NCBI GenBank assembly: GCA_965231095.1
Contig: OZ246416.1
Span: forward strand, 603,549-667,548
Source: an uncultured Gammaproteobacteria bacterium
GTDB taxonomy: Bacteria; Patescibacteriota; Patescibacteriia; XYB2-FULL-38-15
DNA: 64,000 bases
Direction: 5' to 3'
Below the pieces are notes generated by a model. The model was not told the origin of the DNA. It ran no database searches and saw only the letters and a program-made list of their open reading frames with translations. Each line of letters opens with the position of its first letter. The first letter of the stretch is position 1. Shown here piece after piece: positions 4,256 through 59,797 of the stretch. Made by a program: the position numbers and the translations under genes.

Positions 4256-5363
4256 CTTGGTAAATTCGTAAAGTTTCTTCTGCTAGCCTCCCCCAATTAT
4301 ATTTTTTAACTTGCTCCAATCCTAATTTTATTAAATTTTCCCGTGTTGGCTCGTCTGTCCAAACAAATTTTATTTTTTCTATCATGTCCCGCTCATCTTT
4401 CGGATCAAAATAAATCGCGGCTTCACCATAAATTTCCGGAAGGCACGATGAGCTTGACGCGACCACCGGCAGGCCATAACTCATGGCTTCAAGGCCAGGC
4501 AGGCCGAATCCTTCCACAAACGACGGAAAAACATAAACCCGAGCATTGCGGTAAAGATCCGCCAAAATCGCTTCGGAAACAAAATCCGTGAAAATTATAT
4601 TTTTACCAATCTCCGTCTCCCATATTTCCTCCTTCATTCTTTTATAGAAATAATCTTCTTTGCCAACTAAAACCAGCTGGCAGTTTAAATTTAATTTAGG
4701 AAAAATTTTTAGCAGTCCTTCCAAATTTTTGTGCGGATAAGCATTGCCGACATAAAGAAGATACGGTTTTGTGATCCCAAATTTAGCTAAGTGCTTCCTC
4801 TCCGGCATTTTCAATTGGCCGTATTCCACTCCGTCACAAGCCTCGCGGGTCACCTCTATTTTTTCCGGATTTATTTTGAAAAATTTTACTAATTCTTTTT
4901 TTGTACATTCGGAAACGGTAATAACTTTTTTCGCCCGCCGGAGACCGAGGCCAATCACTATTCTGTACGCCAGATATTTTATTTTATAAAGTAATGGCCC
5001 AAGCGTTGTCGCCCGCGGTGTAGGAAATTGTAATAAAATCAGATCATGAATTGTCGCGACAAATTTTGTCGGACAAAAAATAGGAATGTTAAAGTGCGGA
5101 AAGTGGACAAGATCTAATTTTTCTTGCCAAATTACGAACGGCATTGCGACTTGTTCTTTTAAACTATACCAGGGATAATCGGCTAAAACTTTTTTGAAAT
5201 TGGAAAGTTTGGGAGTGTAGTAATCCCAGTTTTCTTTTCGTAAAAAAATTATGTATTCATTTTTTTTGTCTAACTTTTCCAGGTTTTCCACTAGCCGCTC
5301 CACATATCTGCCTAAACCCTTCCCAACTGGACCGAAAAAGCGCGCGTCTATTCCAATTCTCAT
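4239..5363 (-). CDS. Glycosyltransferase family 4 (GT-B fold).
   Basis: C-terminal motif EGFGLPGLEAMSYGLPVVASSSSCLPEIYGEAAIYFDP (the GT4 E-x7-E region). The N-terminus is MRIGIDARFF. The track ORF extends to 5429, but the conserved start is the internal Met whose start codon is at 5363. Confidence 0.8.
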   Translation of the reverse strand: MRIGIDARFFGPVGKGLGRYVERLVENLEKLDKKNEYIIFLRKENWDYYTPKLSNFKKVLADYPWYSLKEQVAMPFVIWQEKLDLVHFPHFNIPIFCPTKFVATIHDLILLQFPTPRATTLGPLLYKIKYLAYRIVIGLGLRRAKKVITVSECTKKELVKFFKINPEKIEVTREACDGVEYGQLKMPERKHLAKFGITKPYLLYVGNAYPHKNLEGLLKIFPKLNLNCQLVLVGKEDYFYKRMKEEIWETEIGKNIIFTDFVSEAILADLYRNARVYVFPSFVEGFGLPGLEAMSYGLPVVASSSSCLPEIYGEAAIYFDPKDERDMIEKIKFVWTDEPTRENLIKLGLEQVKKYNWGRLAEETLRIYQDAGKK

Positions 5364-5619: not shown

Positions 5620-6774
5620 CTAACTGATTAATAACAAAAATTGACGCGCACAATCCTCCCAATTGAATTTTTCCGCTTGCTTTTTTCCTTTTTCAATCAA
5701 GTTCGCCCGAAAATTTTCATTGGTCAAGCATTGCTCCATGGCTTTTGCCATTTCCGCCGGGTTATTTGGATCAACCAAGAACGCCGCCTCACCCATTACT
5801 TCCGGAAGAGATGAATTCGTGCTGACAACAACCGGTGTCCCGGCTCGGGCGGCCTCAAGCGGGGGAAATCCAAATCCTTCATAAAATGAAGGGTAAACAA
5901 AAAGCCGTGCCAATTTATAAAAATATTTTTTTTCTTCCGGCGCGATGTAATCTATAAATTTTATATCATCGCGCGCCGGACTTTTTTTTGCCCGCGCCAA
6001 AATTTTTTTATAAAGCCAGCCGCGCGGACCGACAATCAATAATTTTAGATTTACGATTTCAGATTTTTGATTTCCCCTCAAAATTTCAAAAGCGCGAACT
6101 AATCCTTCAATATTTTTTCTCGGCTCAAGCGTCCCTAAAAACAAAATAAAATTATTCGGCAAATTATATTTTTTTCTAATTTTATCAATTCCCAATTCAT
6201 CATTCACGATTTCTAATTCCCGTCCCACTCCGGAATAAATAACCCCCACTTTTTCCACCGGCACACCATATAATTTGACCAAATCATTTTTAGTATTTTC
6301 CGAAACAGAAATAATTTTGTCCGCGCCGCAAATTATCTTTTGGGGATTGACAAACCAATGCCACAGTCGCCGTTTCCAGGAAAAAAATCTTGGAAAAAAT
6401 TCAAAAGATAGATCATGAACCGTGATCATTTTTTTAACTCCGCGCGATAAAGCTATAAAATTTAGATTTGGAATAAAAAATAAATCAATTTTATCTTTTA
6501 GTAATATCATCTTATCAACTTTTGGCCACTTCAAAAATTTAAAACAAAAATTCAATAACTTATTTGGCCAACGAAATCCGCAAAGACGAACATTAGAATT
6601 TTTTTTCCACTCCCCCAGAAAGTCTTCCTCAACTTTTTTCCAAGAATTATAAAAAAGGAAATAATTATTTTCTTTATCAATACAAAAAAGAGCGTCGAGA
6701 ATCTGATAAGTATATTCTCCGACGCCGCTTCTTTCTTTTTCTAAAAGCGATCTGATGTCAACGCCGATATTCAT
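5620..6774 (-). CDS. Glycosyltransferase family 4.
   Basis: 384 aa. MNIGVDIRSL..., with C-terminal EGFGFPPLEAARAGTPVVVSTNSSLPEVMGEAAFLVDP. Confidence 0.8.
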   Translation of the reverse strand: MNIGVDIRSLLEKERSGVGEYTYQILDALFCIDKENNYFLFYNSWKKVEEDFLGEWKKNSNVRLCGFRWPNKLLNFCFKFLKWPKVDKMILLKDKIDLFFIPNLNFIALSRGVKKMITVHDLSFEFFPRFFSWKRRLWHWFVNPQKIICGADKIISVSENTKNDLVKLYGVPVEKVGVIYSGVGRELEIVNDELGIDKIRKKYNLPNNFILFLGTLEPRKNIEGLVRAFEILRGNQKSEIVNLKLLIVGPRGWLYKKILARAKKSPARDDIKFIDYIAPEEKKYFYKLARLFVYPSFYEGFGFPPLEAARAGTPVVVSTNSSLPEVMGEAAFLVDPNNPAEMAKAMEQCLTNENFRANLIEKGKKQAEKFNWEDCARQFLLLIS

Positions 6775-9378: not shown

Positions 9379-9411
9379 ATATATTAGGTAACAAATGTGA
9401 TCCCCTAAAAT

Positions 9412-9846
9412 TTACCCGAGTAACTATAAGCCGGATTCTGTATCTCGCAGTGATGCGAGACGGTAATCATCTATCTAGGATTTTGATTGCTCAAAATCTC
9501 GAGCGGCTATTTTTGGCCTTGCACCGGATAGGTGTTTTCCACGGCGCCTGTCACCAGGCTGTCCCGCGTGAGCTCTTACCTCACGATTTCAACCTTACCT
9601 CCGCCTTTCGGCGGATCGGCGGTGTATTTTCTGTTGCACTGTCCGTGGGCTTCATTAATTGATGTTCGATTAAGCTCTATCCGCCGCGTAAACGGCAAAT
9701 ATAGCACAAACAACAAAACTTACTCCCCGTCGCTGTTAGCGACTATCTCTCTTTCGGCTTTATGCCGAAACGGTGTCCGGACTTTCCTCTCTCTTTTCCC
9801 CGATTTTAAACGGAAAAATGAGAGCGATTACCCATTACTCGGATAA
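9412..9846 (-). ncRNA. rnpB: RNase P RNA, bacterial type.
   Basis: The minus strand carries the universally conserved P4 elements GAGAGGAAAGTCCGGAC (5' region) and ACAGAATCCGGCTTAT (3' region). The 5' and 3' ends can pair as P1 (CCGAGTAA / TTACTCGG). No protein ORF is present. Confidence 0.7.
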
Positions 9847-18295: not shown

Positions 18296-20107
18296 ATGGC
18301 GCAAAAAATTATTAAAATTTTTCTGCTGGCAACGCTTGCTCTCGCGCTCCTCGTCTCCGCCAGTCCGGCTTTTGCCCAAACAGGTGAAGCCAACGCTCAA
18401 TGCTGGTCTAGTTCAGACTGCATGAAATATACGAAAGATTGCCGGGCTTGTTTTGAAGAGAGAGCGGACATCTGCGGCGAAAACCGCGGTTATTGTTACG
18501 CGAGGCCGGTTCCTGCAACTTTGGAAATTTCTCTTGGAGGATTGACTGATGTCTATGATCCGGCGCAATATATTTCCACTCTTTATCAATGGATGGTTTC
18601 CGTCACGGGAATTCTCGCCGGTATTATGATTATGATTGGCGGCCTTCTCTATCTCACAGCCGGCGGCGCGCCCGATCGCGTCTCTAATGCCAAAGAGTAT
18701 ATCTCGAGCGCTCTTGTTGGTTTGATGTTAGCGTTAACTTCTTATTTTATTTTACAAACCGTAAATCCGGCGCTCCTATCTTTAAAATTTCCCAAGGTTC
18801 CCTTGATTCAGGCCGTCGTTCCTCCTGGGGAATTTTGCGAAGATCTCGCAGAAAATCCTGACATACAAATTACCTCCTCAACTGGCGGAACAAAATGCGG
18901 TGATGTTGGAATTCCAAAAAGTATTTCCGGCGAATCAAATGTTCCCACAAAATGCGCTTACGGAAATTGTTCCAATCCAGAAGAAAGTTGCGAAATTAAC
19001 CCCGAATCGCTCGGTCCGGTAGCGGAATGCAAAAAAGTCGCGGGGACAAGATTGGATGTTTTTTTGGCAGAACGCCGGCAAAAATTTAACTACGCACCGA
19101 CCGCTACAACAAACCCGGCGGCCTGGGCCGCGGATCCCGCGATTCTTGCCGAAAAAGAAGAGATTACAAAAGTTTGCCAACAATGGACGCCTCGATCTCA
19201 AAATGGGATAATCTACCGCACTTACGCTACGGCCTCTTGTAATTTAATTTCTGGAATTGGCGGAGCGGATTTTTTAAAAAATTCCGGAATGCAAGTCGCC
19301 ATTTTCACGGGAGCGAGCAGTTTGTATAGCGGCGCAATTAGAGGCGCCCAGGCCAGGGCAGCGGGATCGACGGTCGGACAGGTTGTGGGCGGCGCCGAGG
19401 TTGGCCTCGGAGCCTGGGGAGTAAAATCGGCCGTTAGAGCCGTTATGAAGCACCCGGCCGTGGCTACTGTCTTAACGGCAATAATTGGTTCTGTTGCTAT
19501 TTCTGAAGAAGTAAATTGCGGCGCAAATTCCGCCCTGCGTGGAAACGCCGCTTGCGGTCTGGTCACCCTTGATTGTAACAGAATAACCAAATGTTCGGAT
19601 TATCCTAATGTTCAGATTAAAGCGGAGGAGGGGCCAATACCTTTGATTGAAATTGACCCCCGCGATTATTTAGGAATGAGTGGCAATGAAATAATTTCTG
19701 ATGTTTGCAAAGATAACCCTTGCGGTCTGCCATTTTCCTGCACAACTGGCGGCGGAGAAGATTTTAGTTTGGGGTGCACGGCTGGAAGCGAGGCAAAATG
19801 TCCGGCCGACGCACACAATGATATTTACAATGGCTTTATTCAGGGCCGTCAACAAAAAGGGCAACTATGCGAGAAAGACGCGGACTGCCAATTTGGAACG
19901 TGCAGCGGCAGTTCCGTCACTATAAATGATCTTCTTACCCCATGCGATCCGGAACATCCCGATTTTCGCAGTCGATATAACGAATCGACTGGCTGCACTT
20001 ATGGCATCTCACCCACACTTTTAGATTGCGGGATCCCTACCGAACAATATCGCCGTCAGGCAAATTTTTACAAGAGAGAAAATGTAACTCTTAGACATTG
20101 TCAATAA
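18296..20107 (+). CDS. Secreted or membrane protein. N-terminal pilin-like two-TM domain (same family as the 58.7-63.4 kb array) fused to a roughly 440-aa Cys-rich C-terminal region.
   Basis: 603 aa. Signal peptide ...SASPAFAQT. The core YQWMVSVTGILAGIMIMIGGLLYLTAGGAPDRVSNAKEYISSALVGLMLALTSYFIL matches the array consensus. It is followed by many Cys pairs (CAYGNCSNPEESCE, CSDYPNV, CTTGGGEDFSLGCTAGSEAKC...). The gene sits between porA and porB. Confidence 0.6.
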   Translation: MAQKIIKIFLLATLALALLVSASPAFAQTGEANAQCWSSSDCMKYTKDCRACFEERADICGENRGYCYARPVPATLEISLGGLTDVYDPAQYISTLYQWMVSVTGILAGIMIMIGGLLYLTAGGAPDRVSNAKEYISSALVGLMLALTSYFILQTVNPALLSLKFPKVPLIQAVVPPGEFCEDLAENPDIQITSSTGGTKCGDVGIPKSISGESNVPTKCAYGNCSNPEESCEINPESLGPVAECKKVAGTRLDVFLAERRQKFNYAPTATTNPAAWAADPAILAEKEEITKVCQQWTPRSQNGIIYRTYATASCNLISGIGGADFLKNSGMQVAIFTGASSLYSGAIRGAQARAAGSTVGQVVGGAEVGLGAWGVKSAVRAVMKHPAVATVLTAIIGSVAISEEVNCGANSALRGNAACGLVTLDCNRITKCSDYPNVQIKAEEGPIPLIEIDPRDYLGMSGNEIISDVCKDNPCGLPFSCTTGGGEDFSLGCTAGSEAKCPADAHNDIYNGFIQGRQQKGQLCEKDADCQFGTCSGSSVTINDLLTPCDPEHPDFRSRYNESTGCTYGISPTLLDCGIPTEQYRRQANFYKRENVTLRHCQ

Positions 20108-24393: not shown

Positions 24394-24923
24394 ATTTTTA
24401 GTTCAGTGATGATTTTTGATACCACCTGCCTGATTGTTAGATTAGTTGTATTAATGACCAAATCATAGCATTCCTCGCAAAAACAGTCAACCCCATAATA
24501 CTTTTTATACCTTTTTTGGCTTTCCGCCATTCTCTTTTGAACCATAGACAAAACGCCCCCGACGGTCTTTTTAACCTCTTCATCCGGCCTTTGGTTTTTG
24601 AAAATCCTTCTTGCCGCGGCCTCTGGACCAACATCCAAAAAGATTTTAAAAGAATGGGGAATGAAATGAAAAGAAAGCCACCCCTCTATAATAAAATTAT
24701 TTTCCTTTTTTCCCAACTTTTTTTGAAACTCATCGACCTCTTTGTCCGTCCAACTTTCTTTTTTCCCTATTTCATTAAGCTCATCAATTGTCATCCCGCG
24801 CTCCATCGCCATTTTCCCGCGCAAATCCCCCATTGAGTAAAATTTATACCCCAATCTCCTGGCCAGAGCGCGAGCAGTTGAAGTTTTTCCGGCTCCGGAG
24901 CGGCCGCCGATCGTAATAATCAT
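24342..24923 (-). CDS. cmk: Cytidylate kinase-like (CMP/dCMP kinase, archaeal/short type).
   Basis: MIITIGGRSGAGKTSTARALARRLGYKFYSMGD... (P-loop plus NMP-kinase fold), about 190 aa. The Lys-rich C-terminal tail overlaps the rplS start by about 50 nt. Confidence 0.65.
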   Translation of the reverse strand: MIITIGGRSGAGKTSTARALARRLGYKFYSMGDLRGKMAMERGMTIDELNEIGKKESWTDKEVDEFQKKLGKKENNFIIEGWLSFHFIPHSFKIFLDVGPEAAARRIFKNQRPDEEVKKTVGGVLSMVQKRMAESQKRYKKYYGVDCFCEECYDLVINTTNLTIRQVVSKIITELKIWKNKKKTERKKRRKKS

Positions 24924-25615
24924 AAACTCTCTAAAAAAATTTTTAATTCTTCCGGCAAATCACTTTTAAATTCTTTTGGCTGCCCATCCAAATCAATAAA
25001 AGAAATTTTTGAAGCATGCAAAAATAATCTCGGCATTATCGGCTCCTTTGTTTTTTTTGACCGATAAAGTTTATCGCCGACCACGGGATATCCGAGCGCG
25101 AAAAGATGCACTCTGATTTGATGCGTTCGCCCGGTTTTAATTTTTACTTTCAGCAAAGTAAATTTTTTAAATCTCTCAGCGACTTCGTACTCTGTAATTG
25201 CCATCCGCCCAGCCTCTGACCCAAGCGGCAGGGCGGCAAACCGTCCGGAATTGGCGCGAGCGATGGGAAATTCTATCGTTCCCTCTTCTTGCGTCAAATT
25301 TCCTTCCACTAAAACCGTGTATTCTTTTTTTATTGTCCTTTCTTTAAATTGTTTGGTGAGTAATTCAAACGCCGCTTCGGTTTTCGCCACGACTAAAAGT
25401 CCCGAAGCGTTTTTATCCAAACGATGAACAATTCCGGGCCGCGCCGGATCCGGGCCGACTTTTGCCACAGCCGGATATTTTTTTATCAGCCAATCCACGA
25501 GCGTCAGTTCTTCTTTTTCTTTCTCTCTTTCTTTGGCAACCTCAAGACCAGCGGGTTTATCAACCACCAAAACATCTTCGTCTTCGTAAATTATTTTTGG
25601 TTCTTGCTCTAACAT
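24920..25615 (-). CDS. RluA-family pseudouridine synthase.
   Basis: 231 aa. Catalytic HRLDKNASGLLVVAKT motif, VDKPAGL..., and conserved family spacing. Confidence 0.85.
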   Translation of the reverse strand: MLEQEPKIIYEDEDVLVVDKPAGLEVAKEREKEKEELTLVDWLIKKYPAVAKVGPDPARPGIVHRLDKNASGLLVVAKTEAAFELLTKQFKERTIKKEYTVLVEGNLTQEEGTIEFPIARANSGRFAALPLGSEAGRMAITEYEVAERFKKFTLLKVKIKTGRTHQIRVHLFALGYPVVGDKLYRSKKTKEPIMPRLFLHASKISFIDLDGQPKEFKSDLPEELKIFLESL

Positions 25616-25622
25616 TAATTAT

Positions 25623-27212
25623 TTATTTTCTTCTAAATATTTTTTTTAAAACCTCAAATCCTCTTTTTTTTCTCTCCTCAAGGGGCTCTTCTTCCGTGCC
25701 GACCTCGCCTGAAAGTTGGGCCTCGCGCAAAACCGTGATTAACTCTCCAACTTTTTTTCCCGGCTTGATTTTAAATCTTTTCATTATTTCATCTCCATTC
25801 AAAATCGGCTTGGGCAACCTGTCTCTTTCTTTTACCAAAGATCTCAATTCTTCAATTCTTTTTTTCATCGCATAAAAATTTTCCAAATCCGGTTCGCCAT
25901 CTTTAGGAATTGTTGCCAGGGCATCGGCAAAAGTTAACTGCAACAAACTATCCCCGGGAAAATTGGGATTAAAAAAATATTTTTCAATTGTACTTGGCTT
26001 CATCTCTTCAATCTTCCCTTGCAAGAGCAACATATGCTTACTAATCATCTGCCCGACTTTTTTTGGTTCAACTCTAAGCGCCGAGTCTTCTGGCAAACTG
26101 TCCAATTTCATCCGCCGACAAATTTCTTCCGCCGCTTCCGCTCCGGCAACATCATGCCCGTCAAAACGAATGCGGTCCGTGCCATCTCGCTCCGGCGTCT
26201 TTTTGGTCAAAGGCTTGCCCAAATCATGAAATAAAACCGCCATGACCACCTCCGCGCTCGGCCGCTCTTCGCCAAATTCTTTTTTAAATTTTTCCAAGTA
26301 GAGATTTGCCAGAGCCATTCTCGTGTGCGTCCAAACATCTCCCTCTGAATGAAAATCCGGGGGCTGCTCGCAACCGCGCATAGAAAATAATTCCGGCATA
26401 AGTTCGTAAAGCGCGCCGCTTCGTTCATATAAATCCAACGCCCGAACCGGGTCGCGCCAAAACGCTTTCAATAATTCCTTCGCCATGGTTTCATGCGGGA
26501 CAACCCTTTCCTTTTTCCCGGCACGTACTCGTTCATCATTAATATGTTTCATCATATCCTGAATCGCCAAAAAAGTTTTTCCTTCAATTTCAAAACCAAA
26601 CTGCGAGGCAAAACGCAGTGCCCGAAGCATTCTGGAATAATCTTCCTTAAATCTCGCTTCCGGTTCGCCCACGGCTCGCAACACTTTTGCTTCCAAATCC
26701 TCCAATCCGCCAAAGGGATCAACTATTTTTCCGTTTTTCAAATCCAAGGCCATGGCATTGATTGTGAAATCACGCCGCGCCAAATCTTTTTGAACATCCA
26801 TCGCCGGATCAGATTGAACTTTGAAATCACGATAGCCGCCGCCGGCGCCGAGCGAATGTTCTGTTCGTGGAAGAGCAACATCAACCGCTTCCTCAAGTTT
26901 CACGCCAGCCGGCATAAATTTATAAACTCCAAAATTTCTCCCAACTAAAACCACTTCCCCGCGCTCCGATAAAAATTTTTCCAATTCTTCTGCCGGGACA
27001 TTTCGCACGACAAAATCAAAATCTTTTTGTTTGCCCGCGCCAGAGGCCGCGTCGCGCACCGCTCCGCCCACAAGATATATTTCACTTTTAGGAAAAGCTG
27101 CTAGCAATTCTTTGGCAAAACCAAGACCGGGCTCCTGTTCCAATTTAGCGCGGAACTCCGCGAGCCTTGTTTCATAAATTGCTGTTCTATTTTTTTCCAT
27201 ATTTTCTAACAT
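25623..27212 (-). CDS. cca: CCA-adding tRNA nucleotidyltransferase / poly(A) polymerase family with an HD domain.
   Basis: 529 aa. YLVGGAVRDAASGAGKQKDFDFVV (PolB-type nucleotidyltransferase head) and HDLGKP (HD motif). Confidence 0.8.
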   Translation of the reverse strand: MLENMEKNRTAIYETRLAEFRAKLEQEPGLGFAKELLAAFPKSEIYLVGGAVRDAASGAGKQKDFDFVVRNVPAEELEKFLSERGEVVLVGRNFGVYKFMPAGVKLEEAVDVALPRTEHSLGAGGGYRDFKVQSDPAMDVQKDLARRDFTINAMALDLKNGKIVDPFGGLEDLEAKVLRAVGEPEARFKEDYSRMLRALRFASQFGFEIEGKTFLAIQDMMKHINDERVRAGKKERVVPHETMAKELLKAFWRDPVRALDLYERSGALYELMPELFSMRGCEQPPDFHSEGDVWTHTRMALANLYLEKFKKEFGEERPSAEVVMAVLFHDLGKPLTKKTPERDGTDRIRFDGHDVAGAEAAEEICRRMKLDSLPEDSALRVEPKKVGQMISKHMLLLQGKIEEMKPSTIEKYFFNPNFPGDSLLQLTFADALATIPKDGEPDLENFYAMKKRIEELRSLVKERDRLPKPILNGDEIMKRFKIKPGKKVGELITVLREAQLSGEVGTEEEPLEERKKRGFEVLKKIFRRK

Positions 27213-27242
27213 AGTTTTCGTTATAGAATACTATCCCTCGTA

Positions 27243-27282
27243 TGGGCGTGGATGGACTCGAACCATCGACCCCGGCTTTATA
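27243..27282 (-). repeat. Exact 40-nt duplicate of the 3' half of tRNA-Ile(UAU), from the anticodon loop to the 3' end.
   Basis: 27243-27282 is identical to 27359-27398, the intact tRNA 115 bp away. It diverges exactly at the anticodon loop. Confidence 0.6.
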
Positions 27283-27358
27283 GCGGCAACCTTCATCTTA
27301 AAAAAATTTAGGTAGTTGCCGATATATCAATGACTACATTATAATCTTATTCCTCGGG

Positions 27359-27432
27359 TGGGCGTGGATGGACTCGAACCATCGACCCCGGCTTTATAAG
27401 AGCCGTGCTCTAACCGGCTGAGCTACACGCCC
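27359..27432 (-). tRNA. tRNA-Ile (anticodon UAU).
   Basis: Minus strand: GGGCGTG-TA-GCTC-AGCCGGTTA-GAGC-A-CGGCT-CTTATAA-AGCCG-GGGTC-GATGG-TTCGAGT-CCATC-CACGCCC-A. The anticodon loop reads cuUAUaa. Confidence 0.8.
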
Positions 27433-27465
27433 CCCCGAGAAATATATTCATTTTTGAAAAGTCAT

Positions 27466-27548
27466 CGCTATAAGAACCGTGCTCTAACCCGCCTCGATGA
27501 GCCGAAGCCCATCTTCGGCGAGGCGGGCCGACTCTAAGCTAGCCACCC
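27466..27548 (-). repeat. tRNA-derived 5' fragment or pseudo-tRNA. Acceptor and D-arm-like sequence interrupted by a 40-nt hairpin, ending at a cuUAUa anticodon-like loop.
   Basis: Minus strand: GGGTGGCTAGCTTAGAGTCGG-[CCCGCCTCGCCGAAGATGGGCTTCGGCTCATCGAGGCGG]-GTTAGAGCACGGTTCTTATAGCG. It is similar to the 5' half of tRNA-Ile, but no matching 3' half is present. Confidence 0.4.
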
Positions 27549-27751
27549 ACAATTTATTTAAATCATAGCGGAAAAGGGATATTTTTTCAAGCCTAAAATC
27601 CCAGGCCGACTCGGCGAGTTTTTTATTTTCAAATTACCAATTACCCTTTACCATTTACCAATTACCAATTTTTTGTAATTGACTTTTTTATCTTTTTAAA
27701 ATAAACTCATACGAGGGCTATATTCCCGAAATCATGGAAGGAGGAAGAGGG

Positions 27752-28222
27752 ATGGAAGAGGGAAAACCAAAAAAAACGTGCAGCGATGCTCCGGTTTGGT
27801 GGCACCCGAACGGAATGATGATGCGACCGATGTCGGGATACCAAGAGCACAAGCTCCAAATCTTTAGCGACAGAGCCGTTCTTACGATCAGCCCCGCCGA
27901 AGATCCCCGCGAACACAACATCTGGCTTCTCGACTGGAAAATCACCCGCATCTCGGCTTTCACTATCAGCGTCAAGCTCAAAATCCCGGAAAAAATTCTC
28001 CGCCATGCCTTCGCTCTTGATGACGGACCATACGAATCCGATGAATGGCTACTCAAACACTACGGCGCCGATGCGGCAGAGCGAGGATATTACGTCCGCG
28101 CCGGAAATTACCTGAATATTCCCGGCCCGGGCACCGGCCACGACGGAGATTCAAATATCTCCATCTTCCTGCGCCCCGATATCAAGGAGGCAGTACGCCA
28201 GCTCCTCGAGCTGCTTCGGTAA
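27752..28222 (+). CDS. Hypothetical protein, encoded in a GC-rich islet.
   Basis: 156-162 aa ORF with locally elevated GC. A strong SD (GGAAGGAGGAAGAGGG) lies 7 nt before the ATG at 27752; the alternative ATG is at 27734. It is followed by a terminator. Confidence 0.5.
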   Translation: MEEGKPKKTCSDAPVWWHPNGMMMRPMSGYQEHKLQIFSDRAVLTISPAEDPREHNIWLLDWKITRISAFTISVKLKIPEKILRHAFALDDGPYESDEWLLKHYGADAAERGYYVRAGNYLNIPGPGTGHDGDSNISIFLRPDIKEAVRQLLELLR

Positions 28223-28261
28223 ACTTTCCCGCCCGGCTGGCTTCGGCCGACTCGGACGGCT

Positions 28262-28296
28262 CCCACACTCTTCACTGAAGTGTGGGATTTTTTTTA
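28262..28296 (+). terminator. Rho-independent terminator.
   Basis: CCCACACTCTTCACTGAAGTGTGGG followed by TTTTTTTT. Confidence 0.6.
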
Positions 28297-28386
28297 ATTA
28301 CCATTTACTGATTACTAGTTACTTAAATATCTTACTCTTGACATAAAAATAAAATTATTGTTTTATTACTTTATAAGGAGGAACAA

Positions 28387-28656
28387 ATGAGCGCTCGCCA
28401 AAAAAAGAAGCAGGCGCTAAAGAGTGCCCGTCCGGAGTGGTGGGAACGTCCCACTTTTTACATTTCCTCCTCCGGCTCCTGGGAAAACGCCACGAAGAAA
28501 TCACGCGTGGAGTTGGTCCTCCCCGATGCCACGAAAGTTGATCTCGGCTATTTCTCTGCGGCGGTAAATTCCGACGAACTCCGTCGCGAGGTGGCGGAAA
28601 AATTCAGAGAAATCTGGGACCCGACAAAACGCTGCCGGCGGACACCGAAACCTTAG
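28387..28656 (+). CDS. Hypothetical 89-aa protein (GC-rich islet).
   Basis: A strong SD (TAAGGAGGAACAA) precedes the ATG. Moderately GC-rich. Followed by a terminator. Confidence 0.5.
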   Translation: MSARQKKKQALKSARPEWWERPTFYISSSGSWENATKKSRVELVLPDATKVDLGYFSAAVNSDELRREVAEKFREIWDPTKRCRRTPKP

Positions 28657-28696
28657 CCCGCGTTTGTTTTTTAAAGAAACAACGCGGGATTTTTTA
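28657..28696 (+). terminator. Rho-independent terminator.
   Basis: CCCGCGTTTGTTT...AAACAACGCGGG hairpin followed by TTTTTT. Confidence 0.55.
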
Positions 28697-29009
28697 TTTA
28701 TTTGTTTAAATTTTCTAGGCTTTTGCCGTTGAAAATTTATCTACAAATAATTAACCCCTTCACTAATTTTATTTTATGTTTTTCCGACAATTAATATTTT
28801 AAAATGAAAAAAATATTTTTTCTATTAACAATATTTTCTAAAATTAGTGAAGGGGTTCTCGATTTTCCAAATTCGCTGCGCTCACGGAAAATCGGAAGTT
28901 ATCCACATCTTTGCCCTTTTTTCCTTGTTGACAACAAAAAAGTGCTGTATAATAAAGTTATATTTAAAAAATTTTCATTTTATCTTTTCCAAGAAGGAGG
29001 TGAACCAAC

Positions 29010-29093
29010 ATGGCAAAAAAGAAAGCAAAAAAGAAAGTCGCGAAAAGAAAACCAGCAAAAAAACGAAAAGCGACTAAGAAAAAACGAAGATAA
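29010..29093 (+). CDS. Candidate 27-aa Lys-rich peptide (MAKKKAKKKVAKRKPAKKRKATKKKRR).
   Basis: A perfect SD (GAAGGAGGTG) lies 8 nt upstream of the ATG at 29010, and a strong terminator follows immediately. The ORF is below the 60-aa track cut-off. Confidence 0.4.
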   Translation: MAKKKAKKKVAKRKPAKKRKATKKKRR

Positions 29094-29104
29094 CGTTTAA
29101 AAAA

Positions 29105-29137
29105 CTTCTCCTGCGTGCGCACGGAGAAGTTTTTTTT
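29105..29137 (+). terminator. Rho-independent terminator.
   Basis: CTTCTCC-tgcgtgcgca-GGAGAAG followed by TTTTTTTT. Confidence 0.6.
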
Positions 29138-29225
29138 ATTAATTTTCCCGCGAAGACGAGTCGGGAACGAAGTCCGAGCGGCTGAAAATTAATAACCCCG
29201 CATTCATTGCGGGGTTTTCTCTTTT

Positions 29226-31387: not shown

Positions 31388-31497
<110 letters not shown>

Positions 31498-31548
31498 TCA
31501 AGCTAAAAACGCTTGAAATTTATTTTTGTATGTTTGCACAATTCTTGT

Positions 31549-34555
<3,007 letters not shown>

Positions 34556-34916
34556 ACAAGAATTGTTAAAACATACATTTTACAATTCTCATTTACTTTT
34601 TTGGTTCTCTTTCTTATGTTGGGTATTAAGATGCTCTTTTATTCAATTGTCAACGAACAATTTTTTTCTGTTTCTCGCCTCTCGTTTTATTTAGAGACCA
34701 GAGGCGGGAGCAAAAAATAATTTTAAATTTTTGGAAAAAGGACTAAAAAACCGCTCTTTCCGAGCGGCTTGGTACGACCAAAAAATAGGTTAGCCACTCG
34801 GGAACTTATAAGTTAAAACTTGTTTTACCATATTTTGCCCAATATCAGAGAAAAATTGTCAGGTGTAACTCTGGATAAAATGTGGACAACTTCCTCCGTT
34901 TTCTTAGTACATTAGT

Positions 34917-36639: not shown

Positions 36640-39600
36640 ATGCGAGGGAAAATTTTGCGTTCTTTTTTAATTATCCTAATCGTTGCAGGGGGATTTTTTA
36701 TTTTTGGAAAAAATTCTTTGGCGGCAAGCGGCGATATTGTTATCAACGAAATAATGTGGATGGGGTCAACCGCATCAACTGCCGACGAATGGATTGAACT
36801 AAAAAATACGACTGATGCCGACATAGATTTGTCCGGCTGGACAATTGAAGGTGCTGCCACAAGTGGAGGCGCGATTACAATTGCTGCTTCTTATACAATA
36901 ATACCAGCTCACGGTTATTTTCTAATCTCCAACTATTTAGAAACTGACTCAAGTTCTAAATTAAATATTGCGCCGAATTTGGTAACCACAAGCGTCTCGC
37001 TTCCCAACACTCAGCTTTTATTAATTTTAAAAGATTCAACCAACGCGGAAATTGATCGGGCTGACGATGGGAGCGGCGTTCCACTAGCGGGCGATAACAC
37101 AAATAAATATTCTATGGAAAGAAACGATGTGCCCGGCGATGGTTCGCTCGCAATTAACTGGCACACCGCCACCTCTTCAAGTGGTTTTGATGCGGGTGCA
37201 ACAGAAAAAGGAACACCGTCCTCAGCTACTCCGCCACCTTCCGGACCAATTTGCGGAAATCTTGTTTGTGAAGCTGGAGAAGATTATTTAAGTTGCCCGG
37301 CTGACTGTGCCGCTCCGCCGCCGCCGACAGAAATAAATCCCGGCGACGTTGTGATTAACGAATTTGTTTCCGACCCGGCCGAAGGCGAAGAATGGATTGA
37401 AATTTTTAACAACAAAGATTCTGATATTGATTTAACTGGCTGGAAAGTGGAAGATGGGGTTGGAACAATCGTGACGCTCGGCACCACCATAACGGCCGAC
37501 GGATTTCAAACCATTGATTTTACTTCAAGCAAACTGAATAATTCCGGCGACATTATTATTTTAAAAAAATCCGACGGGACAATTATTGACCAAGTCGCTT
37601 ACGGAAATTGGAATGATGGAGATGTTGCCGACAACGCACCAAAGGCCAGCGACCCAAATTCCGTGGCAAGAAAAATTGACGGCGGAGATACTAATAATGA
37701 TCTTGCTGATTTTTCCGTGACCACAACTTTAACAAAAAATTCCGCGAATACCATCACGACTCCGCCATCCGAAGAAACCGGCGGGGTGAGTACTCCAGAG
37801 GAAACCACTCCTTCGTCTCCCCCTTCCTGGCCGGTCGGGGCACTTTTGATAAATGAACTTGTCGCCGATCCAACTGATGGCGAAGTGGAATGGATTGAAT
37901 TTTATAATCCCGGAAGCGCGACCATAAATTTAAATAATTGGAAAGTCGAAGACGGCGGAGAAACCGCGACCACTCTTTCCGGCTCAATCGGCCCGCTTGG
38001 ATTTTTTGTTTTGGAAAGGCCCAAGGGCCTCTTAAATAATTCTGGAGACACGATTGTTCTAAAAGACCCTGCCGGCATTATCATTGACCAAATCGCTTAT
38101 GGAAATTGGGACGACGGCGACGCGGGAGACAACGCTCCGGCCGCTCCCGATCCAAATTCCACGGCCAGAAAAACCGACGGACAAAATTCCACTAATGATT
38201 TTAATGATTTTTCTGTCACAACTCCGACCCGAGGATCTTCAAACGCCGGAGGGCTGCAACAAAATCCGAACGGCGCTTATTCGCACGATATTATTATCAA
38301 CGAAGTTTTGCCGAACCCCAAAGGCGACGACACCCAGGGAGAATTTATTGAATTAAAAAATGTTGGCGCGACAGACATTGATTTGACCGGCTGGAAAATC
38401 GGCGACGCGAGTTCTAAAAGATATACTATCAAAGCCAGCGACTTCACTTCCATAATTTTAAAACCAAAAGAATTTTTTGTTCTCTACCGAAAGACAACTG
38501 GCATTGCCTTAAATAATTCCGGCGCGGAATCGGCAAAAATATTTTCTCCCGACGGCGCGCTTGTCGGAACGCTTGAATACTCCGGCGCGGCGGCGGAAGA
38601 CGAATCTTTTGCCCGTGAAACGGAAAATTATTTTTGGACTTCAACTCCAACTCCAGGAAAAGAAAACATCATCACTCGTAAAAATCAAACTCCGGCCGCG
38701 GCCATCTCCGCTCCCGAGGGCGCGGAAATCGGCGAGGCAATAAATTTTGACGGATCTGATTCCACCGATCCGGACGGCGATGAATTAATTTTTTCTTGGA
38801 ATTTTGGCGACGGAGGCGAGGCCGCGGGTGCGAATGCAAACTACATTTATTCCACGCCAGGAAAATACAAAATAATTTTAACTGTTAAAGACGCGGCGGG
38901 TGCCGTGGACACGGCCGAACAATTTATCATCGTCACGAATCACGACGGCGCGGCCGACATTCTTCCGCCCGACGAACAATTAATTTTTATCAATGAAGTT
39001 CTGCCAAATCCTAAAGGTTCTGACGATGCCGAGTGGCTTGAAATTAAAAATATTGACATTGAACCAATTGATCTTTCCGGCTGGAAACTTGACGACGACG
39101 AGGGCGGTAGCCGGCCATACAAAATTCCCGAAGGGACAATAATTTCACCCGGGCAATTTTTAATTTTTAAAAAATCCGAGACAAAATTGGCGTTCAATAA
39201 CACCTACGACGCGGCGCGGCTCTTGGACCCGGACGGCGAAATATTTTTTGAAACAAGTTACGACGAAGTTCCTGAGGGTGCGTCATGGGCGCGGGGCGAT
39301 GACGGAAATTTTAAGTGGACAACACGGCTGACACCGGCCGCGGAAAATATTTTTCAATTTCAAGAAAAAGCCGCGAAAAAATCCAGCTCAACCTCTGCCA
39401 AAAAATCTACAACTTTTACAGAAACAACTCTTGAAGATATCAGAAATCTTGATTTGAATGACGGCGCGCGAGTCACGGGCCAAGTGATTGTCGAACCGGG
39501 AATTTTGGGCAGCCAAATTTTCTATATTGCCACCCCCACTGGCTGTCCCGGAATACAGATATATATGTATAGCAAAAATTTTCCGGAATTAAAACTCGGC

Positions 39601-40146
39601 GACCTTGTGGAAATCACCGGAATTTTATCGGAATCGGGCGGTGAGAAGCGTGTTAAAGTTTCCGAGCAATCTGATATCAAGGTTTTGGAAAACCAAGCAC
39701 CAGCCTCACGAATTCCAATTAAGCTTTCTGAAGTTGAGGAGGGGTTGGAAGGATGTTTGATCTCGGCCACCGGCGAACTTACAGAAAAAAGCGGCAGCAA
39801 TTTATATTTTGCCGATGACGATGGAGAATTAAAAATTTATTTCAAATCAACTTTGAGTTTTCCCAAACCAAAAATTGATATTGGCGACGAAATCGAAACT
39901 GTAGGAATTGTGAGCCAAACCAAAACCGGCTTCCGGCTTTTACCGCGCTACGAAACGGATTTAATAATCAAGGCGCCGTCCGGGGAAATTAATTTATCAA
40001 TTGCTAACGCTTCAACAAAAGACGGAAAAAACGACATCAATTTATATCTCGGCGCGGCCACGGGTCTGCTTGGCCTAACTTTAGTCGGTCTCGGAATCAA
40101 ATCCGGAACTTTGGGAAACTGGTGGAAAAAGATAAAAGGAATATAA
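36640..40146 (+). CDS. Giant cell-surface protein. Signal peptide, five lamin-tail-domain (LTD) repeats, a PKD domain, a Thr/Ser-rich linker and a C-terminal TM anchor.
   Basis: 1168 aa. There are five LTD-type repeats: IVINEIMWMGS...DEWIELKNTTDADIDLSGW; VVINEFVSDPAEGEEWIEIFNNKDSDIDLTGW; LLINELVADPTDGEVEWIEFYNPGSATINLNNW; IIINEVLPNPKGDDTQGEFIELKNVGATDIDLTGW; IFINEVLPNPKGSDDAEWLEIKNIDIEPIDLSGW. The PKD-like segment is DGSDSTDPDGDELIFSWNFGDGGEA...GKYKIILTVKDAAG. The C-terminus is LYLGAATGLLGLTLVGLGIK. A strong SD (AAGGAGGG) lies upstream. Confidence 0.75.
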   Translation: MRGKILRSFLIILIVAGGFFIFGKNSLAASGDIVINEIMWMGSTASTADEWIELKNTTDADIDLSGWTIEGAATSGGAITIAASYTIIPAHGYFLISNYLETDSSSKLNIAPNLVTTSVSLPNTQLLLILKDSTNAEIDRADDGSGVPLAGDNTNKYSMERNDVPGDGSLAINWHTATSSSGFDAGATEKGTPSSATPPPSGPICGNLVCEAGEDYLSCPADCAAPPPPTEINPGDVVINEFVSDPAEGEEWIEIFNNKDSDIDLTGWKVEDGVGTIVTLGTTITADGFQTIDFTSSKLNNSGDIIILKKSDGTIIDQVAYGNWNDGDVADNAPKASDPNSVARKIDGGDTNNDLADFSVTTTLTKNSANTITTPPSEETGGVSTPEETTPSSPPSWPVGALLINELVADPTDGEVEWIEFYNPGSATINLNNWKVEDGGETATTLSGSIGPLGFFVLERPKGLLNNSGDTIVLKDPAGIIIDQIAYGNWDDGDAGDNAPAAPDPNSTARKTDGQNSTNDFNDFSVTTPTRGSSNAGGLQQNPNGAYSHDIIINEVLPNPKGDDTQGEFIELKNVGATDIDLTGWKIGDASSKRYTIKASDFTSIILKPKEFFVLYRKTTGIALNNSGAESAKIFSPDGALVGTLEYSGAAAEDESFARETENYFWTSTPTPGKENIITRKNQTPAAAISAPEGAEIGEAINFDGSDSTDPDGDELIFSWNFGDGGEAAGANANYIYSTPGKYKIILTVKDAAGAVDTAEQFIIVTNHDGAADILPPDEQLIFINEVLPNPKGSDDAEWLEIKNIDIEPIDLSGWKLDDDEGGSRPYKIPEGTIISPGQFLIFKKSETKLAFNNTYDAARLLDPDGEIFFETSYDEVPEGASWARGDDGNFKWTTRLTPAAENIFQFQEKAAKKSSSTSAKKSTTFTETTLEDIRNLDLNDGARVTGQVIVEPGILGSQIFYIATPTGCPGIQIYMYSKNFPELKLGDLVEITGILSESGGEKRVKVSEQSDIKVLENQAPASRIPIKLSEVEEGLEGCLISATGELTEKSGSNLYFADDDGELKIYFKSTLSFPKPKIDIGDEIETVGIVSQTKTGFRLLPRYETDLIIKAPSGEINLSIANASTKDGKNDINLYLGAATGLLGLTLVGLGIKSGTLGNWWKKIKGI

Positions 40147-59170: not shown

Positions 59171-59797
59171 ATGAAAATCTTTAAAATTTTAGTTTTGGGT
59201 TTATTTGTTTTTTCGAGCTTCGCCTTTTTAATTCCAACAGCGCTGGCCTTGCGAACCTGCAGTTCCGGAACCGGCTGCGGACCGGGTGAAACTTGTGCCG
59301 AATTGCCCGCCGCAGACCAATGCGTTGACTCTTCAGGAGATAGAATTTACTACATTACCGGACGTTGTAGCGGCTATCCTTCTGTCGCTTGCCCCTCTGG
59401 ATTTACCTGTCAAACTATTCCTACCAGAGGATCTTATTGCATCACAAATGAAGCGGGAATGGCGTCTACAAGTTGTCCGGCAGGACAAGAGCTGGTAAAT
59501 GGTTCTTGCCAAGCAGCAAGCCAAGCCACCACCGGTCCGGTGGAATTTACCTCACCAATCGACGCCGTTTCCCCGACTCAAATTCTTGGTACGGTCATAA
59601 AAACCGTTTTGGGAATTCTCGGCGCGATTGCTCTCGCGATGTTTGTCTACGGCGGTTTTGTTTGGATGACTTCCGGCGGCAGCCCGGAGAAAATAAAAAC
59701 GGCGCGCACGACGCTCGTCTGGGCGGTGATTGGTATGGTTGTAATATTTTTAAGTTACGCCGCGGTTGATTTTGTCCTTTCAGCTTTTGGCGTTTAA
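59171..59797 (+). CDS. Pilin-like paralog 2 with a Cys-rich N-terminal ectodomain.
   Basis: 208 aa. Signal peptide; ten Cys in the variable region. Core ILGAIALAMFVYGGFVWMTSGGSPEKIKTARTTLVWAVIGMVVIFLSYAAVDFVL. Confidence 0.65.
   Translation: MKIFKILVLGLFVFSSFAFLIPTALALRTCSSGTGCGPGETCAELPAADQCVDSSGDRIYYITGRCSGYPSVACPSGFTCQTIPTRGSYCITNEAGMASTSCPAGQELVNGSCQAASQATTGPVEFTSPIDAVSPTQILGTVIKTVLGILGAIALAMFVYGGFVWMTSGGSPEKIKTARTTLVWAVIGMVVIFLSYAAVDFVLSAFGV

Follow-up and report, generated by a model that had tools for sequence, protein, structure and literature searches.

What is a complete tRNA gene doing inside the remains of another gene for the same tRNA? This question arises from a locus in a 64,000-nucleotide (64-kb) stretch of contig OZ246416.1, from an uncultured bacterium of the Patescibacteriota; the whole of this stretch is referred to below as the window. 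A sequence-only reading had described positions 27359-27432 of the window as a canonical tRNA-Ile with a UAU anticodon, tRNA-Ile(UAU), and an anticodon loop CU-UAU-AA. This description was confirmed by ARAGORN (tRNA-Ile, anticodon TAT, 27357-27432, minus strand) and by a match to Rfam RF00005 (27359-27432, minus strand; 72.8 bits, the gathering score being 29; E = 5e-14; full model, positions 1-71) that lies far beyond chance. The earlier reading was silent on strand; the gene is on the minus strand, where its 5' part reads GGGCGTG TA GCTC AGCCGGTTA GAGC A CGGCT CTTATAA and its 3' part AGCCG GGGTC GATGG TTCGAGT CCATC CACGCCC A. The anticodon loop, C-U-UAU-A-A, comprises 7 nt with U33, and standard pairs occur in all 21 stem positions. 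Comparison with the tRNA-Ile identity set of E. coli, which may not transfer to the Candidate Phyla Radiation (CPR), showed A73, C4:G69, U12:A23, A35, U36, A37, and A38 to be present and position 29:41 to be G:C instead of C:G.

A C-to-T sequencing error at the wobble position, which the sequence-only reading had named as a possible source of the UAU anticodon, was excluded. An exact 32-nt pattern taken from the tRNA's 3' half, used to search species-representative genomes, matched in 64 species-level genomes, nearly all of which are titled CPR bacteria and which span many classes; these representatives share the loop as well as the 3' half. The TATAA loop with the same 3' half also occurs in syntenic relatives L002-L006, which are independent assemblies (L-numbers denote loci from related genomes; the gene for the CCA-adding enzyme next to the tRNA locus served as a tRNA-independent anchor for syntenic loci). 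In the window itself, the loop sequence recurs in partial copies, with a 5' piece at 27469-27492 and a 3' piece at 27243-27282.

Anatomy of the nested locus

The arrangement of these partial copies had escaped the sequence-only reading. Judged from sequence, two tRNA-Ile(UAU) genes are nested here, and the one at 27359-27432 is the inner of the pair (Table 1). On the minus strand, a promoter is followed by a decayed outer 5' half, a 36-nt arm (X1), the complete inner tRNA, a 76-nt arm (X2), and a relic of the 3' half. The insert, consisting of X1, tRNA, and X2, measures 186 nt, contains no protein gene, and is situated inside the anticodon loop of a resident tRNA-Ile(UAU). Both flanking half copies break at the TATA of the anticodon, which is palindromic. 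The resident gene is split at this anticodon-loop TATA, with its promoter and 5' half upstream and its 3' relic downstream, both halves being decayed.

Decay of the outer gene is evident from several features. Its acceptor strand, starting at 27548, has degenerated to GGGTGGC and mismatches CACGCCC in two of the seven pairs, and the joined outer halves were not recognised as a tRNA by ARAGORN, either with or without the GC-rich hairpin in the D loop, a hairpin that is not present in the outer 5' halves of L005, L032, and L068. Close to the anticodon, the outer 5' half shows 92% identity between 27469-27492 (repeat D8) and the inner gene's 27395-27418. On the other side of the insert, repeat D1 (27224-27282 versus 27340-27398) is 90% identical over 59 nt, the match beginning precisely at the anticodon TATA. 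This repeat includes a degenerate X2-like trailer after the distal 3' relic, as in L032, where the distal 3' half is likewise trailed by CCCGAGGAATAAGATTTTAATGTGGTCA. The trailers suggest that the distal 3' relic of the window derives from an earlier insert-borne copy and that the window lineage saw more than one round of insertion.

Only one promoter-like site, with 10 of 12 consensus matches, was found on the minus strand in 27100-27750. A homologue of this promoter region precedes the uninterrupted gene of L006 as well as the outer genes of L002, L005, and L032, and the flank upstream of the outer 5' half in the window is homologous to that of the L006 gene. The site probably drives a transcript that contains the inner tRNA. 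The inner, insert-borne gene is the only intact tRNA-Ile(UAU) at the window locus and is probably the working copy.

The relation between resident gene and insert became clear from the relatives. In L006, a close relative, a plain tRNA-Ile(UAU) gene lies between the same promoter and the downstream flank TTTTGTAATTG. In L005, which has the same flanks, 187 nt comprising X1, a complete second tRNA-Ile(UAU), and X2 interrupt the gene at its anticodon. The outer halves of L005 pair with each other (acceptor stem GGGCGCA/TGCGCCC, anticodon stem CGGCT/AGCCG), and the inner gene is distinct from the outer one (GGGCGTG/CACGCCC, CAGCT/AGCTG). In L077, an intact outer gene occupies these same flanks and is interrupted at the identical site by an insert of unrelated sequence, which also bears a tRNA-Ile(UAU). 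The inserts of L005 and L077 both fall within 150-190 nt. L004, L032, and L076 carry the same insert family as the window, with outer genes in various states of decay, and in L002/L003 only an outer 5' relic, X1, and the tRNA are left. This series, from the uninterrupted L006 via L005 to loci with decayed outer genes, identified the window locus as a nested pair whose outer gene has decayed.

Throughout the nested loci, the stems of inner genes are perfect, save for one mismatch in L073 that is also found in the L073 outer copy. Outer genes are perfect in L005, L072, L073, and L077, have one mismatch in L047, L049, and L068, and are dead in the window, L004, and L032. In L049 and L068, the two outer halves are allele-mismatched, as would be expected if their pairing were not under selection. 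One-sided relics occur at L002/L003/L020, L063, L066, L059, and L076 and are the expected leftovers of recombination between direct half-gene repeats.

GC-rich palindromic hairpins of 20-40 nt were also seen inside tRNA relics of L032, in the T loop of the distal 3' half (oriented ~4593-4622), and of L022, where a perfect 20-nt palindrome (CCTGCCTGCCGGCAGGCAGG) lies in the D-loop region of two tRNA-like copies (oriented ~313-332 and ~570-589). Together with the D-loop hairpin of the window, these may represent a separate class of tiny insertion.

Table 1. Features of the tRNA-Ile(UAU) locus and its surroundings. Positions refer to the window unless a related locus is named.
Feature	Position	Strand	Remarks
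Promoter-like site TTGAAA-17 nt-TATGAT	27562-27590	-	just upstream of decayed outer 5' half
Outer 5' half, relic of resident tRNA-Ile(UAU)	27469-27548	-	ends ...CGGTT CTTATA at anticodon
GC-rich hairpin, 40 nt (CCCGCCTCG...CGAGGCGGG)	27488-27527	-	in D loop of outer 5' relic; direct reading
Insert arm X1 (GCGATGACTTTTCAAAAATGAATATATTTCTCGGGG)	27433-27468	-	leader of inner tRNA; aligns with X1 of six relatives (L004, L005, L032, L068, L072, L073)
Inner, complete tRNA-Ile(UAU)	27359-27432	-	ARAGORN; Rfam, 72.8 bits; 0 stem mismatches
Insert arm X2	27283-27358	-	trailer complementary to X1; P3 hairpin ATATATCGGCAAC...GTTGCCGC; terminal GC before duplicated TATA
Distal 3'-half relic (TATAAAGCCGGGGTCGATGGTTCGAGTCCATCCACGCCCA)	27243-27282	-	identical to 3' half of inner gene (27359-27398)
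Degenerate X2-like trailer (TACGAGGGATAGTATTCTA, cf. CCCGAGGAATAAGATTATA)	27224-27242	-	after distal 3' relic; part of repeat D1
CCA-adding enzyme gene, 525 aa	25623-27200	-	Pfam PolyA_pol and HD; directly downstream, outside insert
RluA-family pseudouridine synthase gene	24920-25615		Pfam PseudoU_synth_2; within about 2 kb of tRNA-Ile(UAU)
Small open reading frames beside tRNA locus	28387-28656; 27734-28222	+	
Small open reading frames, related loci	L002 2405-3630; L004 776-1667; L077 195-1138		
Archease-RtcB slot	27560-29225		
Archease-RtcB slot, related loci	L004 2133-3996; L005 2132-3992; L006 1998-3985		also L008, L075-L078

Recurrence, specificity and pairing of the insert

The insert family of the window (family A; GCGATGAC ... 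ATATATCGGCAAC ... GTTGCCGC) was found in L004, L005, L032, L068, L072, L073, and L076 as well, in three genomic contexts. L068, L072, and L073 represent two contexts other than that of the window, with either a HAD hydrolase gene or an FtsH gene upstream and, downstream, another tRNA and an RluA-type pseudouridine synthase gene. Unrelated inserts share the same design, namely an inverted repeat, a tRNA, an inverted repeat, and an extra 3' segment of 10-45 nt. Besides family A, these are family B (L049, L063, L059), family C (L047), family E (L077), and possibly L066, so that at least four and possibly five insert families of this design, unrelated by sequence, occupy different genomic contexts. 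All inserts measure 110-190 nt and lack an open reading frame (ORF). Their ends are short inverted repeats (GC...GC, GAC...GTC, TTT...AAA), and the number of duplicated junction bases is four in family A, two in family B, up to four in family C, and five in family E.

Of the 64 species representatives, which form an unbiased set, about 10 carry a nested copy or are left with a relic on one side. A copy of half the gene lies within 450 nt of 12 of 71 tRNA-Ile(UAU) genes, whereas none accompanies the 207 other tRNAs from the same DNA. Within family A, every copy found is in a tRNA-Ile(UAU) gene, the arm motifs occur once in the window, and an arm-specific pattern retrieved only three metagenome contigs, in all of which it lies in tRNA-Ile(UAU). 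Identity between arms does not follow host relationship, with values of 81% for window and L068, 73% for window and L005, and 69% for window and L004, L005 and L004 being from the window's own clade. The L077 insert differs from the others yet hits the same gene of the same clade. Together, the discordant arm identities and this independent insertion point to movement.

An autonomous parent was sought in the viral collection and not found: the arm patterns gave zero matches there, and the tRNA pattern retrieved a single contig with a plain gene. This 129-kb contig (IMGVR_UViG_3300029288_007050; L074) carries a CPR-type tRNA-Ile(UAU) at 6161-6235, with the same 3' half as the window gene and no insert arms, among at least eight tRNA genes, and may belong to a phage of a CPR bacterium. 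An assembly artefact was ruled out by recurrence of the arrangement, with divergence, in more than 12 independent assemblies (NCBI, ENA, JGI, Logan). Origin by tandem triplication was also ruled out, as the arms are inverted, not direct, repeats of each other.

A consensus fold was derived from an alignment (A1) of seven family-A members. In this fold, a 7-bp junction helix (P1; TTATAGC/GCTATAA), six of whose seven pairs never vary, prolongs the outer anticodon stem. A second helix (P2) is formed by the start of X1 with X2, and a leader-trailer helix between X1 and X2 stacks on the inner acceptor stem. Just 5' of the 3' junction lies a conserved hairpin (P3; alignment columns 163-169 with 195-201), in which five of seven pairs are invariant. 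Paired cells made up 95.5% of the fold, against 42-49% for slid controls. Twenty pairs had changed on both sides, and the observed covariation score was reached by none of 500 shuffles. Covariation is located in P2 and the leader-trailer helix (e.g., CTCGGG/CCCGAG, CTCAAA/TTTGAG, CTCAGGT/ACCTGAG), while P1 and P3 are almost invariant. P1-type junction helices are found in three unrelated families (TTATAGC/GCTATAA, TTATGAC/GTCATAA, and TTATATTT/AAATATAA), and whole precursors are predicted to fold as a double cloverleaf in which the insert prolongs the outer anticodon arm.

By these predicted pairings, P1 and the leader-trailer helix close the inner tRNA like a clamp. Across inserted tRNA-Ile(UAU) genes (n = 17), the median leader-trailer duplex was -15.9 kcal/mol and a stacked helix of at least 9 bp was present in 9 of 17. 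For simple tRNA-Ile(UAU) genes (n = 51) and other tRNAs (n = 210), the corresponding medians were -6.0 and -7.5 kcal/mol, with such a helix in 0 of 51 and 6 of 210, respectively. The clamp is therefore characteristic of inserted copies.

No published description of a nested tRNA-in-tRNA arrangement was found in full-text searches of papers on nested or interrupted tRNA genes, on CPR splicing endonucleases, and on lysidine in CPR. Intron-aware ARAGORN reports the inner gene only and never the outer one, which may explain why the arrangement went unnoticed. With standard tRNA finders giving only the inner gene, it is invisible in current annotations.

Two related loci deviate from the common design. 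In L028 (oriented ~1215-1450), the 5' relic of tRNA-Ile(UAU) breaks after the D arm instead of at the anticodon, and inverted repeats (GTCTAAAAACTAA...) flank an intact tRNA. In L049 (oriented 6311-6470), a perfect 30-bp inverted repeat surrounds the inner tRNA and takes in the first six bases of the acceptor stem, and the 3'-terminal ACGCCCA of the tRNA is repeated after a CTA spacer. By its sequence, this inverted repeat looks like a template-switch product at the acceptor-stem palindrome.

Origin of the insert

The explanation that we favour, and to which we give somewhat better than an even chance, is that of a DNA-level insertion cassette without any protein, specific for tRNA-Ile(UAU), that brings a replacement tRNA and leaves the resident gene to decay. 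The insert would be a member of a mobile cassette lineage specific for this gene, and insertion into an essential, probably single-copy tRNA gene would be survivable only because the cassette brings the replacement. The inner tRNA would be transcribed from the promoter of the resident gene and released by RNase P and 3' processing, while the clamp would prevent mispairing between the halves of this tRNA and their outer homologues in the same transcript. Most tentatively, the cassette might spread between genomes by DNA-level homologous recombination through the very conserved flanking tRNA halves, possibly assisted by breakage at the palindromic TTATAA of the loop, and might be lost by recombination between the direct half-gene repeats, leaving one-sided relics. 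If this explanation is correct, the locus represents a minimal selfish element without a protein gene that occupies an essential tRNA gene by means of a carried replacement, leaving tRNA halves and fragments behind. It would then also be a live bacterial example of the origin of disrupted, split, or intron-bearing tRNA genes and a new route for exchange of tRNA genes between distant lineages.

Several observations weigh against this explanation. No enzyme or mechanism of insertion was identified, and neither the window nor the genes bounding other nested units encode an integrase, transposase, or homing endonuclease. Unlike the footprint of a transposase, the junction duplication has a length that depends on the family (2, 4, or 5). 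At four loci, the outer gene is perfectly intact. Compensated pairs distinguish the outer from the inner gene of L072 in every stem, but both have the same derived D arm and variable loop. The L072 locus is syntenic with that of L068, and the nested unit of the two is about as diverged as the flanking genes (76.6% versus 69-75%). If the insertion predates the split between L072 and L068, the outer gene must have been kept under selection, unlike a dead relic. Moreover, the arms of L072 and L068 (86%) are more conserved than neighbouring coding DNA, which implies some sequence-specific role outside the cassette model. Finally, the covariation in the arms could have arisen by DNA-level correction of an inverted repeat, without selection on RNA pairing.

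In the main alternative, which we regard as unlikely, the insert is an intervening sequence removed from RNA and one transcript yields two tRNA-Ile(UAU) molecules. The inner tRNA would be cut out by RNase P and 3' processing, and the outer one would be obtained by an endonuclease cut at P1 and joining of the halves by a ligase such as RtcB; the decayed outer gene of the window would then be a redundant copy that was lost. In its fullest form, also doubtful, this would be a new bacterial tRNA intron housing a second tRNA, with a double-cloverleaf precursor, a cut at P1, RtcB-type joining, and pairing of UAU with the end of the insert possibly directing anticodon modification. In yeast, the tRNA-Ile(UAU) intron pairs with the anticodon and is required for pseudouridylation of positions 34 and 36; in every context seen here, tRNA-Ile(UAU) has an RluA-type pseudouridine synthase gene nearby. 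The perfect outer cloverleaves of L005, L072, L073, and L077, the compensated differences in all stems between outer and inner gene of L072, at a locus syntenic with and about equally diverged from that of L068, and the unchanged outer 5' half of L005, compared with about 10 changes in that of L004 although the arms are 88% alike, all argue for removal from RNA. So do the predicted double-cloverleaf precursor, the P1 helix in three unrelated families, and the in silico joining of outer halves, which for 7 of 9 loci ARAGORN recognised as tRNA-Ile(tat). Conservation of the arm sequences suggests that some factor recognises them, and Archease, RtcB, and CCA-enzyme genes adjoin the locus in L004-L006, L008, and L075-L078. 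On the other hand, about half of the loci have an outer gene that is dead or has lost part of its sequence, the outer halves of L049 and L068 are allele-mismatched, and RtcB is not adjacent at L047, L049, L068, L072, and L073, where outer genes are intact or nearly so. Bacteria are not known to possess a splicing endonuclease, and neither one encoded in the window nor any other candidate was found. A strict search for an archaeal-type bulge-helix-bulge (3-4-3) failed in every register of 10 loci; in the 37/38 register, zero or one of the four central-helix pairs was present, and the junctions lie within a continuous 7-bp helix. Archaeal and eukaryal protein-spliced tRNA introns (reviewed in PMC4090602) resemble the insert in their position in the anticodon loop at or near 37/38, in the pairing of the anticodon with the 3' end of the insert, and in the RtcB-Archease operon adjoining the locus in some relatives; they differ from it in their bulge-helix-bulge, whereas here a tRNA lies inside the insert and many outer genes are decayed. 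The insert is also neither a group I intron nor a known small ribozyme. Only tRNA was matched in Rfam searches of the window (at the gathering score), of 26900-27900 (E up to 10), and of seven nested loci (E up to 1), with no Intron_gpI and no known small ribozyme among the matches. Arms of about 110 nt without the tRNA leave no room for the P3-P9 catalytic core of a group I intron, and across the five registers that the TATA duplication permits, the insert ends in C, T, A, T, or A, never in the terminal G. A hammerhead-like P1/P2/P3 three-way junction was rejected, since its only long joining strand is GAUAUAU instead of CUGAUGA with GAAA. Group I introns do occur in the anticodon loops of tRNA-Asn and tRNA-Asp of Patescibacteria (Nakagawa et al. 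2026, PMC13011429) and share with the insert the interruption of the anticodon loop, a patchy distribution, and absence of a homing endonuclease gene; the insert differs in matching no intron model, in lacking the core and terminal G, and in containing a complete tRNA. If nevertheless removed from RNA, it would be the first non-self-splicing tRNA intron in bacteria and the first known to hold another tRNA, a conclusion far more surprising than a cassette with a replacement tRNA.

Alternatively, but improbably, the insert could be what remains of an integrase-mediated integration by a phage or plasmid with its own tRNA-Ile(UAU), of which nearly everything but the tRNA was later deleted. Integrative elements that target the anticodon loop of a tRNA classically leave a displaced 3' tRNA part. 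Such elements have in common with the insert the anticodon-loop insertion, the retention of a working tRNA by the incoming DNA, and the displaced fragment as a direct repeat, here 27243-27282 identical to 27359-27398; a displaced upstream 5' half is not predicted by them. An archaeal parallel is the tRNA 5' fragment left next to a recombinase-bearing element in Caldiarchaeum (PMC3293823). The plain CPR-type tRNA-Ile(UAU) within the tRNA array of the phage contig and the variable small accessory ORFs beside the locus in the window, L002, L004, and L077 also fit this origin. The insert differs from these elements in having no integrase or cargo genes within a total of 110-190 nt, in bringing a complete tRNA instead of the 3' part only, and in displacing 5' and 3' resident fragments in a nested arrangement. 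A classical integrative element was accordingly rejected, the inserts being without integrase or ORF and tightly placed between housekeeping genes (the neighbours of nested units are FtsH, HAD hydrolase, pseudouridine synthase, CCA enzyme, and other tRNAs). As to a remnant, no integrase, phage gene, or larger intermediate was seen in about 16 loci, and the viral collection lacks the arm patterns. Deletion would need to have ended at identical points repeatedly, since across seven genomes and three contexts the family-A arms are collinear, and random deletion leaves the leader-trailer complementarity of every family unexplained. Smaller still is the probability that we assign to an origin without any mobile element, by repeated local replication errors (template switching at the palindromic anticodon arm and the acceptor stem) homogenised by gene conversion. 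Junction duplications of 2-5 nt, as in microhomology events, the TTATAA palindrome of the loop, the identity or near-identity of inner and outer halves in L049, L073, and L066, and the perfect 30-bp inverted repeat of L049, which includes the acceptor GGGCGT as expected of quasi-palindrome extension, are all compatible with such errors. Against them, family-A arms are unrelated to local flanks and 73-86% identical across three genomic contexts, implying common descent of the arms, by transfer or very old inheritance. In addition, the arm tree conflicts with host relationships, and simple tRNA-Ile(UAU) genes offer no leader-trailer complementarity to grow from (0 of 51). A typical miniature inverted-repeat transposable element (MITE) was rejected as well, given the single target gene, the junction duplication of 2-5 nt, and arm motifs that occur once in the window. 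MITE-like elements resemble the insert in their small size, absence of an ORF, inverted repeats, and short palindromic ends (GC...GC, GAC...GTC); it differs from them by its one target gene, an apparently functional tRNA as cargo, variable duplication, and inverted repeats that covary.

AUA decoding and neighbouring genes

The sequence-only reading had called a UAU isoacceptor rare in bacteria. For cultivated bacteria, the literature bears this out: tRNA(UAU) is listed for 19 species in tRNADB-CE (PMC4013482), TilS is present in 98% of surveyed bacteria (PMC6063277), and Mycoplasma mobile provides a worked example of a bacterial tRNA-Ile2(UAU) (Taniguchi et al. 2013, PMC3575796). For CPR bacteria, the statement does not hold. 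With 64 species-level genomes sharing the exact 3'-half pattern, the UAU isoacceptor emerges from these sequences as the rule in Patescibacteria and not the exception. The M. mobile type is similar in being a canonical bacterial tRNA with an explicit UAU that must read AUA, in a small reduced genome; the difference is that the trait is group-wide here instead of confined to a handful of species. A major bacterial radiation, and not a few odd species, thus encodes a UAU decoder for AUA, which makes loss of TilS and adaptation of isoleucyl-tRNA synthetase (IleRS) in CPR a genome-wide question.

The assumption of an AT-rich genome was not borne out, as the GC content in the window is 39-52%, mostly 41-48%, and about 44% overall. 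AUA is nevertheless in real use. Calculation of its frequency, as the sequence-only reading had proposed, gave 186 of 15,823 codons in the 40 window ORFs of at least 150 aa, corresponding to 11.8 per 1000 codons and 15% of Ile codons, and an AUA decoder is therefore needed. Neither a TilS-like PP-loop ORF nor a tRNA(CAU) was found within the window, which also does not encode IleRS. About 600 kb of related CPR DNA, scanned for the PP-loop motif, likewise contained no TilS-like ORF; the single ORF that matched resembles GMP synthase by motif reading.

Most relatives have an Archease-RtcB operon inserted in the order between the tRNA-Ile(UAU) locus and the CCA-enzyme gene, with which it forms a cluster of tRNA repair and maturation genes. 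The closest named relatives of the window CCA enzyme are from Patescibacteria, including Falkowbacteria. The operon is missing from its slot in the window, L002/L003, and L032, and no RtcB was found in the window; in the window and in L002/L003, small ORFs without a family match occupy the slot. Adjacency of RtcB and Archease was considered as a correlate of intact outer genes and rejected, as it is confined to one clade and occurs beside simple, intact, and decayed loci alike. It is synteny and not a correlate of the nested state. An RluA-family gene also lies within about 2 kb downstream of tRNA-Ile(UAU) in L047, L068, L072, and L073. By analogy, this proximity recalls the anticodon pseudouridines of eukaryotic tRNA-Ile(UAU), and it may be plain conserved synteny.

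The small ORFs beside the locus have no Pfam or NCBIfam match. They include a basic protein of ~90 aa common to the window, L002, L004, L024, and L032, a ~150-aa protein common to L002, L004, and L077 and not found in the window, and a 71-aa ORF of L002 that is ribbon-helix-helix-like by reading. A role as trans-acting factor was rejected for these proteins, the ~150-aa family being absent from the window and the ~90-aa family from most nested loci. Relative to the CCA-enzyme gene, L004 and L077 have their entire nested unit in inverted orientation. Clusters of short ATTACC/GGTAAT-like repeats at 27626-27672 and 28290-28322 bracket a 162-aa ORF in the window.

Other RNA genes of the window include a 23S-5S rRNA pair at 31388-34557 (minus strand). 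No 16S rRNA gene occurs in the window, which makes this an unlinked rRNA operon. At 3013 nt, the 23S match exceeds the 2925 positions of the model and may contain an insertion. A class A bacterial RNase P RNA at 9411-9843 (minus strand; 196 bits) is, with 433 nt against a model of 367 positions, also longer than the consensus. Among protein-coding genes, type IV secretion system pilin domains were found in two proteins (18296-20107 and 59171-59797), and a surface protein of 1168 aa with lamin-tail and PKD domains is encoded at 36640-40146.

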